IMG/VR virus record: IMGVR_UViG_2778261065_000005
Source of the DNA: a virus
Lineage: Duplodnaviria > Heunggongvirae > Uroviricota > Caudoviricetes
DNA: 9,356 bases
Direction: 5' to 3' (one strand)
Shown here in pieces: positions 1 through 7,696 of the stretch; positions within the stretch are counted from its first letter, which is position 1; every line of letters starts with the position of its first letter. Below the pieces are notes generated by a model. It was not told the DNA's origin. It saw only the letters and a program-made list of their open reading frames with translations, and did not search any database. The translations under genes were made by a program, and so were the position numbers.

Positions 1-9
1 TATTAAGAC

Positions 10-29
10 TATCACTTATTTAAGTGATA
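10..29. promoter_or_regulatory. 20-bp perfect palindrome TATCACTTATTTAAGTGATA; candidate operator for a dimeric DNA-binding protein
   Basis: Read directly: 9-bp arms with a 2-nt centre, perfectly self-complementary. It lies in non-coding DNA about 130 bp beyond the operon terminator. No flanking U-tract on either strand, so it is unlikely to be a terminator. Confidence 0.3.
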
Positions 30-160
30 CTGGTTGTCTGGAGATTCAGGGGGCCAGTCTACTGACTGCACTGATTAACTACGTCACCAGCTCACAGATG
101 TCTATGCAGGATCTGCAAACACATCTCGACTATTGTGCCGAACAACTACGAAAACAAACC

Positions 161-188
161 ACATAAAGAAAAGGCCGCGAAAGCGGCC
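161..188 (-). terminator. Rho-independent terminator ending the minus-strand operon
   Basis: GC-rich hairpin GGCCGC-GAAA-GCGGCC at 173-188 (6-bp stem, GAAA loop). On the minus strand it is followed by a U-rich run (plus-strand acataaagaaaa at 161-172). No T-tract follows it on the plus strand, so it is directional for the minus-strand transcript. Confidence 0.6.
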
Positions 189-202
189 TGTGACATGTCA
201 CA
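189..202. repeat. 14-bp perfect palindrome TGTGACATGTCACA abutting the terminator hairpin
   Basis: Read directly: positions 189-202 are self-complementary. Could be a second stem-loop of a compound terminator or a protein-binding site. Confidence 0.4.
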
Positions 203-208
203 CTCACG

Positions 209-349
209 TTATGACAAGCCTATGTATCCTGCTACACCAGATAATATCAAAATAACTGCAACAGCAAATTCGCCATCGTCAATGATACATTTACGGTTCA
301 TAACGCCAAGTGCAACAAGCGCAAACACAACAAGAATAAAAGCAATCAT
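209..349 (-). CDS. Candidate small hydrophobic (two-segment membrane) protein, 46 aa: MIAFILVVFALVALGVMNRKCIIDDGEFAVAVILILSGVAGYIGLS
   Basis: Hand-translated; too short for the supplied track. ATG at 347-349 is preceded on the minus strand by TAAGGATGAGAA (AGGA with a 6-nt spacer), directly after the TAA of the 824-aa gene and upstream of the terminator. Two hydrophobic stretches flank a short polar loop (NRKCIIDDGEF). Wobble positions are more AT-rich than in the large genes, so it is either acquired or non-coding. Confidence 0.35.
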   Translation of the reverse strand: MIAFILVVFALVALGVMNRKCIIDDGEFAVAVILILSGVAGYIGLS

Positions 350-2838: not shown

Positions 2839-4641
2839 TTAACCTCTCAAGAAACACGCCACAGCAACATCAAACAGGCTGGAATCCTGTATTGCCTGCT
2901 CACTTTCCCTGTTAGCTTCATCCAGTACTTCACGCGCACTGCGCGATTGTGGATTACCATCATCATCCAGCACGGTGATTATCATGTCAGGTGATTCAAG
3001 CAGCGAGTCTTCAGCTATACGCAGATCAATATCTCCTGCCGGATCTGCCATCATTTTTTGTTCTGTCTGTTGCAATATCTTACCGGGCTCAAAAGGAGCT
3101 ACTTCGTCTGGCGTCCTGACCTCTGCTGTTTTATAGAATGAAACAGCCTGAGCATTAAGTTCACTTTCTGCCTGCTGTCGCCGTGCCAGTTCTGCTCGAG
3201 CTTCAAAAAACTGACCTCCAGGCTCGTGCGGTGCCAACGCGTTACGGGAAAATTCCAGGCGTTCTTGTGCCTGCCGGATTCGTTGATCAATATCACGAAG
3301 TCTGGCCTGTTTATCTGATCGAGCACGAGACAAAGCTTTACCGCTACCGGTTGGCTCTTCTGCAAGAATTTGTGCACGCTGTTCAGTGAGATTTTCAATA
3401 ATTCGTTGGCTATTAGCGATTTCAGACTGGTAAACCTGTCTATCTCCACGCGGCAAAAGCTGCGCGGCCTGTTCTTCAAGCAACCGATTTTCTATAGCGC
3501 GCGCCGTTACTCCATCATCTACAGATGACAGAGCCTCATTAACTGCCTGAGACAGCAGACTCTTGCGCCCAGGAATTTCACTGAAAGATGCAGACTCAAC
3601 AATGCTGGCAACGTCTACAGGTCTCCCCTGGCTAACATCAGACATAGCTTTTCGCAGAGCCTGAATGTGAGAATTGCGCGAAAGCACGTTGATCGGCACG
3701 CCGGGCGCAATATCAATTTCAGCATGATGAGCGGCATTCGCCGCCAGTGCAGCATCAATATCAACTGGTGAAAAATTTGGTGCGCTTGTAGACTCGCCGC
3801 GAGAGTTAATAAATCTGCCGACACCACCAAACGCCACCCCAAGAACAGCATCAATAGCAATTGCCTGTCGATCCAACACATCATACTGGTTAGCCATTTC
3901 GCTATAGCCACCATCACGAAGCGTTTTTGCAGTAAGCCCACGCTGTGCCATACCGAACGCAATATTTGTACCTGCGGCATAGGCAATATCTGGCGTTGCA
4001 CTTACTGCTGTTGCTGCGGCGCGTCGCACTGAACTTTCACCCGTCCGCGCAAGCTGAGCCGCCACACCTTCCGCCAGCGCACCACCAGCACGTAACCCGA
4101 GGCTCATAGGGATCATTGTTCCGGCACCAGCAGTAATACCCTGCACTAATCCCGCTTCCTGCGCCGTCCTGAAATCAACACCCTGTGCTGTCAGCCGTTC
4201 AAACTCAGAAAAACCCTGTAGCGAAGTTACCGCCGCAGCACCTCCGGCCGGACCACCGAGCGTTGTACCGATAACAGCCTGCCCGCCCATATCGAACAAC
4301 CCATAAAGAACCTGCCCGGCGGTTCCGGTTGTCGCGGCATCAGGCGTCAGCCGCTTAACCTGCTGCTCTGCTAGTTTTCTCTGCTCGGCAATGTATGAAA
4401 CTGAAGTGTCATTGAGCGAGGTGTTTTCGTTAACAAACTGAGCAATCGGGGATACGATTTTATCCATCCCTGCCCAGAGCAACTGATCTGGCTTTGCCAC
4501 CAGCCCGGAGTACAAACCAGACAATGCCGCTCCTACAGCATTGTCGAAAAAACCAACATCGCTGTTAAAGCCAGCTGGATTTGATGCTGCTTCGTCAAGC
4601 TGCTGATTCTGGTTTACTGGATTAAGGCCAAAGTAACTCAT
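2839..4641 (-). CDS. Internal virion / ejection protein (600 aa) with Gly/Ala-rich hydrophobic segments and a charged C-terminal helical region
   Basis: ATG at 4639-4641 in an ATGA overlap with the upstream stop; GGAG about 10 nt upstream. The N-terminal half has repeated small-residue hydrophobic stretches (GGQAVIGTTLGGPAGGAAAV, ITAGAGTMIPMSLGLRAGGALAEGVAAQLA, IAIDAVLGVAFGGVG) typical of membrane-inserting segments. The C-terminal third is E/R/Q-rich and likely coiled coil. Confidence 0.8.
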   Translation of the reverse strand: MSYFGLNPVNQNQQLDEAASNPAGFNSDVGFFDNAVGAALSGLYSGLVAKPDQLLWAGMDKIVSPIAQFVNENTSLNDTSVSYIAEQRKLAEQQVKRLTPDAATTGTAGQVLYGLFDMGGQAVIGTTLGGPAGGAAAVTSLQGFSEFERLTAQGVDFRTAQEAGLVQGITAGAGTMIPMSLGLRAGGALAEGVAAQLARTGESSVRRAAATAVSATPDIAYAAGTNIAFGMAQRGLTAKTLRDGGYSEMANQYDVLDRQAIAIDAVLGVAFGGVGRFINSRGESTSAPNFSPVDIDAALAANAAHHAEIDIAPGVPINVLSRNSHIQALRKAMSDVSQGRPVDVASIVESASFSEIPGRKSLLSQAVNEALSSVDDGVTARAIENRLLEEQAAQLLPRGDRQVYQSEIANSQRIIENLTEQRAQILAEEPTGSGKALSRARSDKQARLRDIDQRIRQAQERLEFSRNALAPHEPGGQFFEARAELARRQQAESELNAQAVSFYKTAEVRTPDEVAPFEPGKILQQTEQKMMADPAGDIDLRIAEDSLLESPDMIITVLDDDGNPQSRSAREVLDEANRESEQAIQDSSLFDVAVACFLRG

Positions 4642-7151
4642 TGCGGAATATCTCCGGAGAATCTCTGACGCTTCTGTGTCAGATCAAGAACAACGGGAGA
4701 ACCATCATCTTTTAGCAGATAACCAGTACCAAGTTTCACCAGGTACTGACTATCGCCGTAACTTTGCAAACCATACTGACCAGGCGGTGTTTTTATCCCT
4801 GTGCCAACAACTTGTTCATTCCAAGCCTGATTAACCTGCTTATCGAATTGCTCTGCAGACATTCCCCACGGCAAAAGAACATTCCCCATTCCGTTATAGT
4901 CATGCACGCCACCTGTAGCTACGTTAACAGCCTGTTTCCAGATATCATTGTCAATTTCGCCTGATACCACGCCTTTTTTCGCCATCACACCAGCGTAATA
5001 GTCCTTTGCGATCTCGTATGCCATTGATGCCCCCTGAGCATCACCAGCAAATGCATCCTTCACCATGTCAGAAAACTCAAGGCGGAGATCAGCATCTTTA
5101 GGCATCGGAATACCTTTCGCGTCATCAGTACCTTTACGAGCCGCCGCGCCAGCAAGAATTGTCTGCGCAGCGGTTTCAGGAGACACGGAAACATCCGGAT
5201 TAAACCAGTTTTTTTCTGCCAAAATACCACCTGGCTTATCCATCAGTATCCCGGCAACGGCAGCAGATGGAGCGTTGGCACTGATCTGCTGTAGTGCTGA
5301 CATATACACCTGCCCACCACCAGTGCTCTGCCTGATGGTATCGAGATATGCTGCCTGTTGGGAAACGGGCGCATCACGAAAGAAAACACCGATCTGATTG
5401 GCCTCGTCTTTGGAAAAGAACGTCAGTGGAGTGCCATATGACTTAGCAAGGTCACTGACCTGAGCAGCACGCAAGGCAACGCTCTGTCCAAAGTTATCCT
5501 TATTGCTCATGTCGATAGGCTTTGCCTGTCCGGCGGCAAGAGAGAACTGTACAGGATCAGCCTGTCGCTGCTTTATCACCTGACTTGCAGCCGACACAAC
5601 GTTGTCATAAAGAGCGGCTCGTGCCGCATAACCCTCCCCTGTCTCACCAGTATCCGGGCGTAATTGCTCAACATATGCTGTAATGCTGCTTGTCGGCATG
5701 TTGCGGAAAGAGCCTATATACTGTCCGGCGATTTGCGTATTTCTGAACTCGGTATATCGCAGTTTTCCTTCTCTGACTCCATAAGCTGCAATAAAATCAG
5801 CCTCACCAGGTGGGTTAGGAAATTCAACGCCACGCATATACGCAGCTGTCGCATCGCGAACCTGGCTGTCAATCATCGTTTTATATTCAGCCTGCTGCTG
5901 CCGACGCAGTTGATCCGCCTGTCGCATAAAACTTGCCTGCGCCTCAGGAGATGCCGCATCGAATGCTGCATTACCGGTATAGCGTTTGGTGTTGGTTGGA
6001 ATTGTTGATAAACCAAGTGCTGCACTGACACCAGCAGTTAACTGCTGATCACTGTATGGCTGGCTACCGTTCTCATGATGGATAATGGCTGCACAAAGCG
6101 CCTTCAGGGTATCAGGATTAGATGCATCGAGAGGCTCATCAGCAGAAACGCCAAGTTGTTCGCACACTGCTTTGATATACGACATAGTGTCATTTTTATC
6201 AGTAGGCGGTGCCCAGCGATTAATTATCTCGCTGACGGTATCAATACCCTGCCTCTGATACGACATCAGGTTCCGCCCTAATGCACGAATCCCGTGTTCA
6301 GGTGTTTCGAATTTAGCAAATCGACCATCATCACCGGTCTGGCCTACCCACGGATTAGTTTTGCTGTATTCGAGATTTCCTGGGTTATTGTTGCGTATGC
6401 CACGGGCACGCTCGGAAGAGTCACTATCTGCTACAGCACGGCGAGCTCCAGCAGCAGTATCGCTTAACTCGCCATTACTTTGGATAAATGAGATCGCATT
6501 GTTTGCCGACCACTGGGACAATGCTGCATCAGCAACCTTCTCTTTAAACTCGATTTTCTTGGCCTGTATTTGCTCGTCGCTCCAGCCATGTGCAGCACCG
6601 TACTCCTCAATTTGCTGGAAAGTTTGCTTATTAGCCAATACGTATGCGGCATTGTCGCCATACAATGCTGCGGCATTTTTACCATTGTTCAGCAGCGTCG
6701 CCTGAAACTGACCTTCTTCGTAGGCATTTATTTGCCCTATCTCGTGCCGCCCGGCCTGCGTAGTGAACTGAATACGCTGCTGCTGCGCCTGCTGCATGAA
6801 AGCATTACGAGCCTGTTCATCCGGCAGCGACATAGCCAGTTGTTCGATCTGAGCATCAAACTGCTGCGTATACTCCTGACCTTTTCCAATAGCATTTTTC
6901 CCTTTCAGGTTAAGCAAACCTGTTTCAGGGTTATTCAGCAGATCGCTGCCTGTCTGACTGAGTTTAAGGGATGCCTCCTGAGCCAGAGCGATATTGGCAC
7001 GCTGTTTTGCCTGACCAAAAACATCAATTGTCTCTGCCCCTGCCCGAACAAAAGCATCACCAATACCTGGCTGAGAAAACGTCTGCAAGCCTGCTGACTG
7101 AACTCCACGGCTCTCAACCTGACGTCCGGATACTGTTGGTACGACTGGCAT
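4638..7151 (-). CDS. Large internal virion / ejection protein (837 aa), with a conserved-looking central block
   Basis: Long open frame. The track ORF (862 aa) starts at GTG 7226 and would overlap the upstream gene by 76 nt. The internal ATG at 7149-7151 has a strong Shine-Dalgarno (GGAGGA, 5-nt spacer) and forms a TAATG junction with the upstream stop, so I call the start at 7151. Stop TGA overlaps the next ATG (ATGA). Q-rich helical N-terminal region; distinctive block RGIRNNNPGNLEYSKTNPWVGQ...HHENG. Confidence 0.8.
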   Translation of the reverse strand: MPVVPTVSGRQVESRGVQSAGLQTFSQPGIGDAFVRAGAETIDVFGQAKQRANIALAQEASLKLSQTGSDLLNNPETGLLNLKGKNAIGKGQEYTQQFDAQIEQLAMSLPDEQARNAFMQQAQQQRIQFTTQAGRHEIGQINAYEEGQFQATLLNNGKNAAALYGDNAAYVLANKQTFQQIEEYGAAHGWSDEQIQAKKIEFKEKVADAALSQWSANNAISFIQSNGELSDTAAGARRAVADSDSSERARGIRNNNPGNLEYSKTNPWVGQTGDDGRFAKFETPEHGIRALGRNLMSYQRQGIDTVSEIINRWAPPTDKNDTMSYIKAVCEQLGVSADEPLDASNPDTLKALCAAIIHHENGSQPYSDQQLTAGVSAALGLSTIPTNTKRYTGNAAFDAASPEAQASFMRQADQLRRQQQAEYKTMIDSQVRDATAAYMRGVEFPNPPGEADFIAAYGVREGKLRYTEFRNTQIAGQYIGSFRNMPTSSITAYVEQLRPDTGETGEGYAARAALYDNVVSAASQVIKQRQADPVQFSLAAGQAKPIDMSNKDNFGQSVALRAAQVSDLAKSYGTPLTFFSKDEANQIGVFFRDAPVSQQAAYLDTIRQSTGGGQVYMSALQQISANAPSAAVAGILMDKPGGILAEKNWFNPDVSVSPETAAQTILAGAAARKGTDDAKGIPMPKDADLRLEFSDMVKDAFAGDAQGASMAYEIAKDYYAGVMAKKGVVSGEIDNDIWKQAVNVATGGVHDYNGMGNVLLPWGMSAEQFDKQVNQAWNEQVVGTGIKTPPGQYGLQSYGDSQYLVKLGTGYLLKDDGSPVVLDLTQKRQRFSGDIPQ

Positions 7152-7696
7152 TATAATCCTCCAGGTAATCTGGTTCCTGCTGCTGCCCCGATTGGCGCAG
7201 GAGTGCTTTGAGTAAACGGACTCCACGTCCCACCAAACATCTGGTACGCACCGTATGCCTTCAGAGGCGCAGTGAGCAATGTTGTTGCTGCTCCCACATT
7301 CCCCTGTTTACGGGCTGAACTGGCTTCTGCTTTATAGTTAGCAGCCTGAACCTGATAACCGTAAGCCTCGCGTTGCGCGTTATTCACCGTCGTCAGCGAA
7401 TCAAGGGCGCCAAACTGAGCAGTGTCACCAAATATATCCAGCGCGTTACCTGTAGATAAATCGGCGCCGGTCGCCCCCATTGTCGCCGCCTGTGTACCAA
7501 GCCGCTGTCGGGTCTCTCTGCGCCGTTGCTCAGCTTCAGCGTTACCCCTATTTATTGCATCATTTGCCTGAGCTGTGGCTATATCTGCGTTCGCTTCTGC
7601 AACCTTCGAGGCATACTTTCCCTGTTGGTACTGGGTGTATGCCTGAATGCCACTCATGGCGAGCATTGCGCCACCAGCAATAACCGGATCGCACAT
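7151..7696 (-). CDS. Ala/Gln/Gly-rich small internal virion (core) protein, 181 aa
   Basis: ATG at 7694-7696 preceded by GGAGAG. Low-complexity A/Q/G-rich composition beginning MC..., of similar length and position to the small internal virion protein (T7 gp14-type) of podoviruses. Stop TAA at 7151-7153 overlaps the next ATG (TAATG). Assignment is from composition and synteny, not a verified alignment. Confidence 0.7.
   Translation of the reverse strand: MCDPVIAGGAMLAMSGIQAYTQYQQGKYASKVAEANADIATAQANDAINRGNAEAEQRRRETRQRLGTQAATMGATGADLSTGNALDIFGDTAQFGALDSLTTVNNAQREAYGYQVQAANYKAEASSARKQGNVGAATTLLTAPLKAYGAYQMFGGTWSPFTQSTPAPIGAAAGTRLPGGL

Follow-up and report, generated by a model that had tools for sequence, protein, structure and literature searches.

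Genomic setting of the 46-codon ORF

The DNA analysed here is a stretch of 9,356 nucleotides (hereafter, the window), in which the long open reading frames (ORFs) all lie on the minus strand. By megablast, it belongs with the Uetakevirus-type (epsilon15/phiV10-like) podophages and their E. coli prophages, the identity being 98% to PAS61 and phiV10, and 82-83% to the SPN1S-type Salmonella phages. The 862-, 600- and 824-aa proteins of the window have their PHROG matches among families for virion or internal proteins. [quoted passage not shown]

Behind this gene lies a 46-codon ORF, the subject of the present analysis, whose ATG follows the 824-aa stop codon by 9 nt (Table 1). The original prediction had placed this ORF after the 824-aa gene and before a hairpin terminator, within the transcribed unit, and had credited it with a plausible Shine-Dalgarno (SD) sequence. 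Both statements agree with what was found: no promoter- or terminator-like site was detected between the 824-aa gene and the ORF, and the AAGGA motif upstream of its start codon is retained as an SD-like sequence with changed bases (GAGG, GGAG, AAGGAG) in divergent relatives, such as loci L052, L053, L059 and L080.

Table 1. Features of the window that bear on the 46-codon gene (positions in nucleotides of the window)
Feature	Position	Strand	Basis or remarks
862-aa ORF	4638-7226	minus	ORF list
600-aa ORF	2839-4641	minus	ORF list
824-aa gene, IVP-D homologue	359-2833	minus	matches phiV10p20; related to epsilon15 gp17 and BcepC6B gp17
Shine-Dalgarno sequence AAGGA	356-360	minus	overlaps the TAA of the 824-aa gene (361-359); 6 nt upstream of the ATG
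46-codon gene	209-349	minus	ATG 349-347, TAA 211-209; product MIAFILVVFALVALGVMNRKCIIDDGEFAVAVILILSGVAGYIGLS; PhiV10p21 / PHROG 7892 / WP_000559990.1
Predicted helix 1, codons 2-19, first hydrophobic segment	293-346	minus	hydropathy, AlphaFold2
Turn M-N-R-K-x-I-I-x-D-G-E-F, codons 17-28	266-301	minus	most strongly conserved portion of the family, with I23, D25 and E27 invariant
Predicted helix 2, codons 25-45, second hydrophobic segment	215-277	minus	hydropathy, AlphaFold2
12-bp perfect palindrome GTGACATGTCAC	190-201	no strand	between stop codon and terminator; right-hand boundary of the slot
Intrinsic terminator of the late operon	162-189	minus	hairpin from 189 to 172, with stem AGGCCGC/GCGGCCT and loop TTTC; T-run TTTCTTTATG; annotated as terminator in phiV10

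Selection on the reading frame and its base composition

Relatives of the ORF were gathered from 51 IMG/VR loci and one Citrobacter locus, and Nei-Gojobori proportions were calculated over 33 distinct haplotypes. Expressed as sums over non-independent pairs, and hence descriptive, the values in the 46-codon frame were 0.249 for pS and 0.052 for pN, i.e., a pN/pS ratio of 0.21, compared with 1.31 and 2.74 in the other two frames of the same strand and 0.05 in the last 600 nt of the 824-aa gene. In the most divergent pair, that of the window and L052, 30 of 34 synonymous but only 21 of 104 non-synonymous sites differ (Fisher p = 1e-12). The start codon, the stop codon and a length of 45-48 aa are kept across the E. 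coli, Salmonella, Citrobacter, Hafnia and metagenomic relatives, the most divergent ones included. Three alleles with a single-base frameshift, each independent of the others, were seen in the 51 loci, which means either that the gene is dispensable in some prophages or that those assemblies contain errors.

Short ORFs are indeed common, there being 93 of at least 30 aa in the window, and the DNA that separates the terminator from the last structural gene could harbor one by chance without coding for anything. However, selection that is specific to one frame effectively refutes this explanation, and the conserved start, stop and length, the maintained SD sequence and the extreme hydrophobicity of the product (see below) all speak against it as well, leaving it a negligible probability. 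The checks named in the original prediction, conservation of the frame among relatives and a bias of substitutions to synonymous sites, thus speak for a small coding ORF, and we hold with high confidence that it is a genuine gene whose product is a small hairpin protein of the membrane type.

The ORF was also said to be richer in AT than the structural genes, and this is the case. Its GC content is 0.376, against 0.498 for the window, which places it in the lowest 0.2% of 141-nt windows, and its GC3, at 0.277, lies below that of the window's six large ORFs, which ranges from 0.41 to 0.50. Part of the low GC comes from the hydrophobic amino acid composition of the product; the deficit nevertheless persists when the same residues are encoded with codons chosen as in the three large genes (z = -2.2).

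Predicted structure of the product

The 46-aa peptide is the most hydrophobic product among the 93 ORFs of at least 30 aa in the window, its GRAVY score of 1.78 comparing with 0.98 for the runner-up and with a mean of -0.05 (sd 0.58) for the small ORFs of the window. Hydropathy delineates two hydrophobic stretches, residues 1-17 and 28-46, with the loop NRKCIIDDGE between them. AlphaFold2, supplied with the family alignment, returned a helical hairpin of two helices, residues 2-19 and 25-45, at a mean pLDDT of 92. Thus, hydropathy and the structural model both reproduce the two hydrophobic, helix-like segments and the charged loop of the original prediction, including the two transmembrane (TM) helices that it implied. 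Localisation to the inner membrane is likewise a prediction from the hydropathy and the AlphaFold hairpin, according to which the product would be a helical hairpin seated in that membrane. The MNRK-IIxDGEF turn would lie on one face of the membrane, probably the cytoplasmic one because of the positive-inside rule, with both termini on the opposite face. The predicted helices are short, with 17-19 hydrophobic residues each, and this topology is a predicted one.

When the model was searched with Foldseek against BFVD and the PDB, the sole significant match was a member of the same family, the rest being generic helical hairpins. A profile search of the PDB gave one spurious match, to a designed repeat protein, and no stretch that passed on its own.

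A known family of narrow distribution

Judged by its sequence, the 46-codon gene is not new, but is already recorded as PhiV10p21, PHROG 7892 and RefSeq WP_000559990.1. The phiV10 counterpart is PhiV10p21 (AAZ95943.1), and the same ORF is annotated in PAS61 and, as WP_000559990.1, in E. coli chromosomes; in the Salmonella phages SPN1S, SPN9TCW, SPC32H/N, 65FD and 66FD, members of the family are annotated as 'putative (integral) membrane protein'. By hmmscan, the match to PHROG 7892, a PHROG without an assigned function, covers residues 1-46 of a 46-position profile (E = 5.5e-33). The tblastn identity of the protein is 100% to PAS61, 97.8% to phiV10 and 85-87% to the Salmonella phages; no residue separates the window copy from PAS61 or WP_000559990.1, and one separates it from phiV10. 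The PhiV10p21/PHROG 7892 family therefore shares with the window gene its 46-aa length, its position and 85-100% of its sequence, and nothing substantive differs. The description of the ORF as unlisted holds for the gene list from which the original prediction was made, but not for GenBank and RefSeq, where it is annotated. GenBank, RefSeq and PHROGs already list the gene, as one for a hypothetical membrane protein, so that its finding adds no new genetic element.

The family is very narrow. A collection of 5.8 billion proteins contains 42 of its clusters when grouped at 90% identity; they come from E. coli, Salmonella, Citrobacter and Hafnia, and none falls below 72% identity to the query. 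When 1.84 billion representative proteins were searched exhaustively with a profile, only 5 clusters at 50% identity were retrieved, all from the same family, and no distant or chromosomal (non-prophage) homologue came up; a scan of genome contigs added a single locus, in Citrobacter braakii. The position of the gene is equally constant. It lies directly downstream of an IVP-D-type gene in the window, phiV10, PAS61 and the 51 IMG/VR loci, and every divergent member that could be placed, including L059, L060, L147 and L148, is also found directly behind an IVP-D-like gene. The family is, in other words, always located immediately after the last internal-virion (ejection) gene of Uetakevirus-type podophages.

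Scans of the 46-aa protein and of the proteins that replace it in other phages (see below) against Pfam, NCBIfam and PADLOC gave no match above threshold. Below threshold, the only matches were to DUF5367, DUF6773 and a holin family. The literature on phiV10, Uetakevirus, SPN1S/SPC32H and epsilon15 gp17/gp18 was searched for functional work on the protein or on its slot, and none was found.

A slot for interchangeable cassettes

To describe what occupies this position elsewhere, we surveyed 78 IMG/VR loci in which the C-terminal 250 aa of the 824-aa protein are at least 97% identical to those of the window. Three types of content were found: a 57-aa ORF with two TM segments followed by PHROG 3075 (40 of the 78 loci), the 46-aa family (30 loci), and a small TM ORF with a lipoprotein of PHROG 3716 (8 loci). 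The three cassettes encode small envelope proteins that are mutually unrelated, yet the first ORF of each begins 9-10 nt after the same TAA. The slot is thus a site of several unrelated, interchangeable cassettes for small envelope proteins, and the separate acquisition of the ORF, which had been suggested from its codon usage, finds support in these unrelated cassettes that occupy the same position behind 97-99% identical C-terminal regions (250 aa) of the 824-aa protein.

Named phages extend this picture, as there are Uetakeviruses whose 824-aa protein is 87-99% identical but whose slot content is different. In phiv142-3 and Klebsiella phage BUCT711, the slot holds an unannotated 57-aa two-TM ORF and then a 98-118-aa multi-TM protein of PHROG 3075; in Enterobacter phage Tyrion, it holds a 103-aa two-TM protein, and in the epsilon15-like phage VB_ST_E15, a 64-aa two-TM protein of PHROG 29212. 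One divergent locus carries a distant, 1129-aa IVP-D-like gene, then a protein resembling Tyrion gp19, and then a 45-aa homologue of the window protein. At the corresponding position, Pseudomonas phage Shamal has an unannotated multi-TM ORF, and Yersinia phage YeP4 has a convergent lipoprotein gene without a co-directional small ORF.

The left boundary of the slot is the stop codon of the IVP-D (824-aa) gene. On the right, the palindrome GTGACATGTCAC and the GGCCGC...GCGGCC terminator are present in all these phages whatever the cassette. Two known types of binding site were considered for the palindrome: the spacing of the half-sites does not fit a CRP/FNR site, and the match to a LexA-type site (CTGT-N8-ACAG) contains one mismatch and a GC-rich spacer.

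Expression of the gene and comparison with morons

No sigma-70-like hexamer pair with at least 8 of 12 matches was found in the last 243 nt of the 824-aa gene, in a scan with a crude consensus that a weak or non-sigma-70 promoter could escape. The third codon positions of the same 243 nt vary freely among relatives, with no conservation of synonymous sites. Considering the 9-nt gap and the failure to find a promoter, the 46-codon gene is most simply regarded as the last cistron of the late structural operon, possibly coupled in its translation to IVP-D.

A moron has been defined as an extra gene that differs in GC and has its own promoter and its own terminator (PMC3594210, after Juhala et al. 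2000). The 46-codon gene shows three of the classical features. It is present in only some close relatives (30 of the 78 loci, the other 48 having other cassettes), its GC content differs, and it is followed by a terminator, an element that doubles as the terminator of the late operon. The feature that was not found is a promoter of its own for expression from the repressed prophage, as judged in the 9-nt gap and the last 243 nt upstream. With no recognisable promoter, such expression from a repressed prophage, which is where exclusion usually operates, is unsupported.

Superinfection exclusion as the preferred reading

The original prediction had named superinfection exclusion, modulation of lysis and a toxin-like activity as candidate functions. 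Superinfection exclusion appears the most reasonable of the three, as a guess by analogy, both of position and of protein type; for modulation of lysis and a toxin role, specific support was not found. Specifically, we propose, with a probability of about 0.3, that the protein is a dispensable inner-membrane accessory factor that acts against the incoming DNA of related podophages. The 46-aa hairpin would interfere with the conduit of ejection proteins at its membrane end, or with a host partner of this conduit, in the manner of SieA or HK97 gp15. Since it appears to have no promoter of its own, the protein would be made mainly with the late genes, in lytic growth or upon induction, and any expression in a lysogen would come about through read-through or an unrecognised promoter.

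SieA of P22 is an inner-membrane exclusion protein that blocks DNA injection, with escape mutations located in gp16 and gp20; the sieA gene is absent from many relatives, and very divergent types are found in the same slot (PMC10883804). The gene order in P22 is 16, sieA, mnt/arc/ant and 9, and in phiV10, it is p20 (IVP-D), p21, p22-p24 (the Bro-N antirepressor region), the p25 tailspike and then the O-antigen acetyltransferase. Both are temperate podophages specific for the O-antigen, and in both, the gene of a known or predicted membrane protein separates the last ejection-protein gene from the antirepressor/tailspike/O-antigen-conversion region. The resemblance in position is nonetheless partial, because sieA is convergent to gene 16 and is transcribed from its own promoter, whereas the window gene is co-directional and a promoter was not found. 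SieA is also larger, with 162-164 aa and three predicted TM helices, compared with 46 aa and two helices here. BLASTP produced no alignment between the two proteins at E values up to 100, and the motif FxRYPxEAxxFNK of SieA types A-C (PMC10883804) is absent from the 46-aa sequence.

HK97 gp15, by its published description, is likewise a small inner-membrane exclusion protein encoded in the structural operon beside the DNA-delivery genes (PMC3594210), and it shares with the window gene an atypical GC content and the existence of related phages that lack it. It differs in being expressed from the prophage with its own promoter and terminator, and in its derivation from the host YebO family (PMC3594210), since neither a promoter nor chromosomal homologues were detected for the window gene. 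It also counts against the exclusion reading that phiV10 already excludes itself by O-antigen acetylation (PMC11854483).

Alternative functions

The other explanations are best weighed against the same body of evidence. Co-transcription and perhaps translational coupling with the late genes, with no promoter of its own, would also suit a late-phase modulator that acts on the inner membrane, e.g., on holin triggering, lysis timing or proton-motive force, and not on incoming phages. Holins and antiholins are typically small two-TM proteins, the window protein resembles class II holins in being a small phage protein with two predicted TM helices, and the PHROG 3075 protein of one alternative cassette matches a holin family of Pfam weakly, below the threshold (E = 0.027). 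However, phiV10 carries a complete lysis cassette elsewhere, consisting of the p27 membrane protein, the p28 holin, the p29 endolysin and the p30/p30a spanins, about 5 kb from the 46-codon gene and in a different transcription unit; no endolysin gene is adjacent. The 46-aa protein ends in GYIGLS, without the charged, hydrophilic, cytoplasmic C-terminal tail of class II holins, and has no holin family match in Pfam or PHROG. A holin role is therefore unlikely in view of the separate holin/endolysin/spanin cassette and the missing tail; as close relatives without the gene hold unrelated cassettes in the slot, the broader idea of a late membrane modulator is also improbable. A peptide so small and so hydrophobic might also act in abortive infection, or in the manner of a type I toxin, by making the membrane permeable once expressed. 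A hairpin of two helices is predicted here, however, and the well-known toxins of type I have one TM helix. No promoter-like site was found on the plus strand in positions 1-1000, and Rfam gave no family at gathering score or at E values up to 1, save a spurious snoRNA match; PADLOC gave no match either. With no antisense promoter or RNA family found, and with the gene embedded as a cistron of the late operon, a type I toxin role is unlikely, and we consider its chances very slim.

The constant location immediately after the IVP-D gene, together with the overlap of the SD sequence with the IVP-D stop codon, which suggests coupled synthesis, would suit a protein that assists the hydrophobic IVP-D, as a partner or chaperone, or that confers immunity to it. 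Such a hairpin might shield the membrane of the producing cell from IVP-D prior to packaging, or it might be a minor component of the virion that aids the inner-membrane channel; small hydrophobic proteins are easily missed in virion proteomics. Against this, three unrelated cassettes are found behind IVP-D genes whose products are 97-100% identical over their last 250 aa, and the IVP-D proteins of phiV10 and phiv142-3 are both 99.4-99.6% identical to that of the window while their slot contents differ. Yersinia phage YeP4 has no co-directional small ORF at this place, frameshift alleles occur, and the selection on the gene (pN/pS 0.21) is about four times more relaxed than that on IVP-D (0.05). 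An obligate partner of IVP-D is thus unlikely, considering the near-identical IVP-D C-termini with unrelated cassettes and the relaxed selection, and an ejectosome accessory of any kind has a low probability. A factor for lysogenic conversion or host fitness, which would modulate a membrane protein of the host (a transporter, sensor kinase or protease), a mode of action shared by many small proteins of bacteria, appears a somewhat poorer prospect still. The gene does belong to an accessory, horizontally exchanged, AT-rich cassette of a temperate phage, its polar turn is the best conserved part, which suggests a specific binding surface, and one of the alternative cassettes includes a lipoprotein, a common product of morons. 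On the other hand, a promoter for expression in the lysogen was not found, the family occurs at a single position in a single group of phages (the 5 clusters in 1.84 billion proteins), and there were no chromosomal, non-prophage homologues in that search.

Implications of the slot

Superinfection exclusion, our preferred function, may also be combined with the properties of the slot into a larger scheme, namely a cassette-exchange slot, a new ejection-blocking family and a palindrome that serves as the swap boundary, although as a whole this combination is rather unlikely. In such a scheme, the slot from the IVP-D stop codon to GTGACATGTCAC and the terminator would be a dedicated site of exchange whose proteins are co-expressed with the late genes, and the palindrome would be a recombination or regulatory boundary that permits the cassettes to be swapped. 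The 46-aa hairpin would then be the smallest known phage protein to block the inner-membrane step of podophage DNA ejection, and would represent a new exclusion family, unrelated to SieA, that acts on conduits of the IVP-D/T7-gp16 type.

The modest value of the finding resides in its context, a hot spot of Uetakevirus-type podophages at which small membrane proteins and lipoproteins are interchangeable, directly behind the gene of an inner-membrane ejection protein. Should the cassettes turn out to encode exclusion factors directed at the ejectosome, they would offer compact means of studying the passage of podophage DNA across the inner membrane. They would then also matter for phage typing and reporter phages in E. 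coli O157 and Salmonella, in which resident prophages similar to phiV10 and SPN1S could block the detection phages. The part worth following up is the whole cassette slot with its conserved boundary of palindrome and terminator, of which the terminator region folds better than shuffled controls (z = -2.7).

Alternative cassettes in the slot behind IVP-D

The slot, i.e., the variable site between the stop codon of the gene for IVP-D (the 824-aa ejection protein of the window) and the palindrome and terminator of the late operon, is occupied in related phages by small envelope proteins different from the 46-aa two-helix ORF of the window. In phiv142-3 and BUCT711, and also in 40 IMG/VR loci (e.g., L064), it holds a two-TM ORF of 57 amino acids, which starts with GTG or TTG 9 nt past the IVP-D stop, is absent from the annotation of the phiv142-3 and BUCT711 GenBank records, and returned no PHROG match. 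The pN/pS of this ORF, at low divergence, was 0.32 in frame versus 0.75 and 1.21 out of frame; it is likely to be a genuine gene overlooked in annotation and to correspond in function to the 46-aa ORF. The third cassette, found in L080 and seven more similar loci, has first a small hydrophobic ORF, which a frameshift may have split, and behind it a 126-aa lipoprotein with the lipobox LLVGC, which belongs to the function-unassigned family PHROG 3716. A convergent lipoprotein gene is also located right behind the IVP-D gene of Yersinia phage YeP4, and its product, judged by eye, resembles the L080 lipoprotein.

Enterobacter phage Tyrion encodes another two-TM protein, gp19, which also occurs in a metagenomic phage (L060) with a very unlike IVP-D of 1129 amino acids. 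In L060, the gp19-like protein adjoins a 45-aa member of PHROG 7892, the family of the 46-aa ORF, which indicates that slot cassettes can be stacked. Lastly, an ORF in Pseudomonas phage Shamal overlaps the IVP-D gene at its end and runs on into a 464-nt 'gap' ahead of the tail fibre gene; thus, the placement of membrane proteins behind IVP-D may extend outside enterobacterial phages.

Coordinates of slot cassettes and neighboring features
Feature	Location	Remarks
57-aa two-TM ORF	phiv142-3 (L003) 4985-5158; BUCT711 (L005) 4985-5158; L064 from 3263	xFLIILSVIISG..FIDRYKYF..
Lipoprotein cassette	L080 (IMG/VR) 3260-3853	
YeP4 lipoprotein gene	L061 4028-4435	
92-103-aa two-TM protein	L060 3668-3946; Tyrion (L004) 4988-5299	strongly charged C-terminal tail (..LWLKRKKLE..)
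Multi-TM ORF	Shamal (L062) 3981-4412	absent from annotation
Perfect palindrome GTGACATGTCAC	window 190-201 (14-bp form 189-202); phiV10 (L145) 19493-19504 and 2262-2273	in window, between 46-aa ORF stop and terminator
IS2 end	window 1-62	
epsilon15p19-like gene remnant	window ~61-165 (+)	ends in DLQTHLDYCAEQLRKQTT, then stop

The palindrome and a possible module edge

The palindrome was kept in all Uetakevirus loci examined, regardless of the slot cassette. The complete phiV10 genome contains exactly two perfect copies, the second being 3' of the reverse-strand gene p03 in the same order of stop codon, palindrome, GC hairpin and T-run. The palindrome may bind a protein or mark a recombination boundary. 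Window 61-189, which takes in the terminator and the 3'-terminal part of the convergent gene, is 98-99% identical to the E. coli phage records TL-2011b and EC.W1-9, and this identity ends at 188/189, the hairpin edge adjoining the palindrome; such an end of homology fits the palindrome as a module boundary.

The IS2 end, which matches the IS2 ends of Stx phages and of thousands of E. coli genome sites at 100%, cuts off the convergent epsilon15p19-like gene, leaving only its last ~34 codons. CP169309, the closest genome without this insertion, carries IS2 within the 824-aa gene instead.
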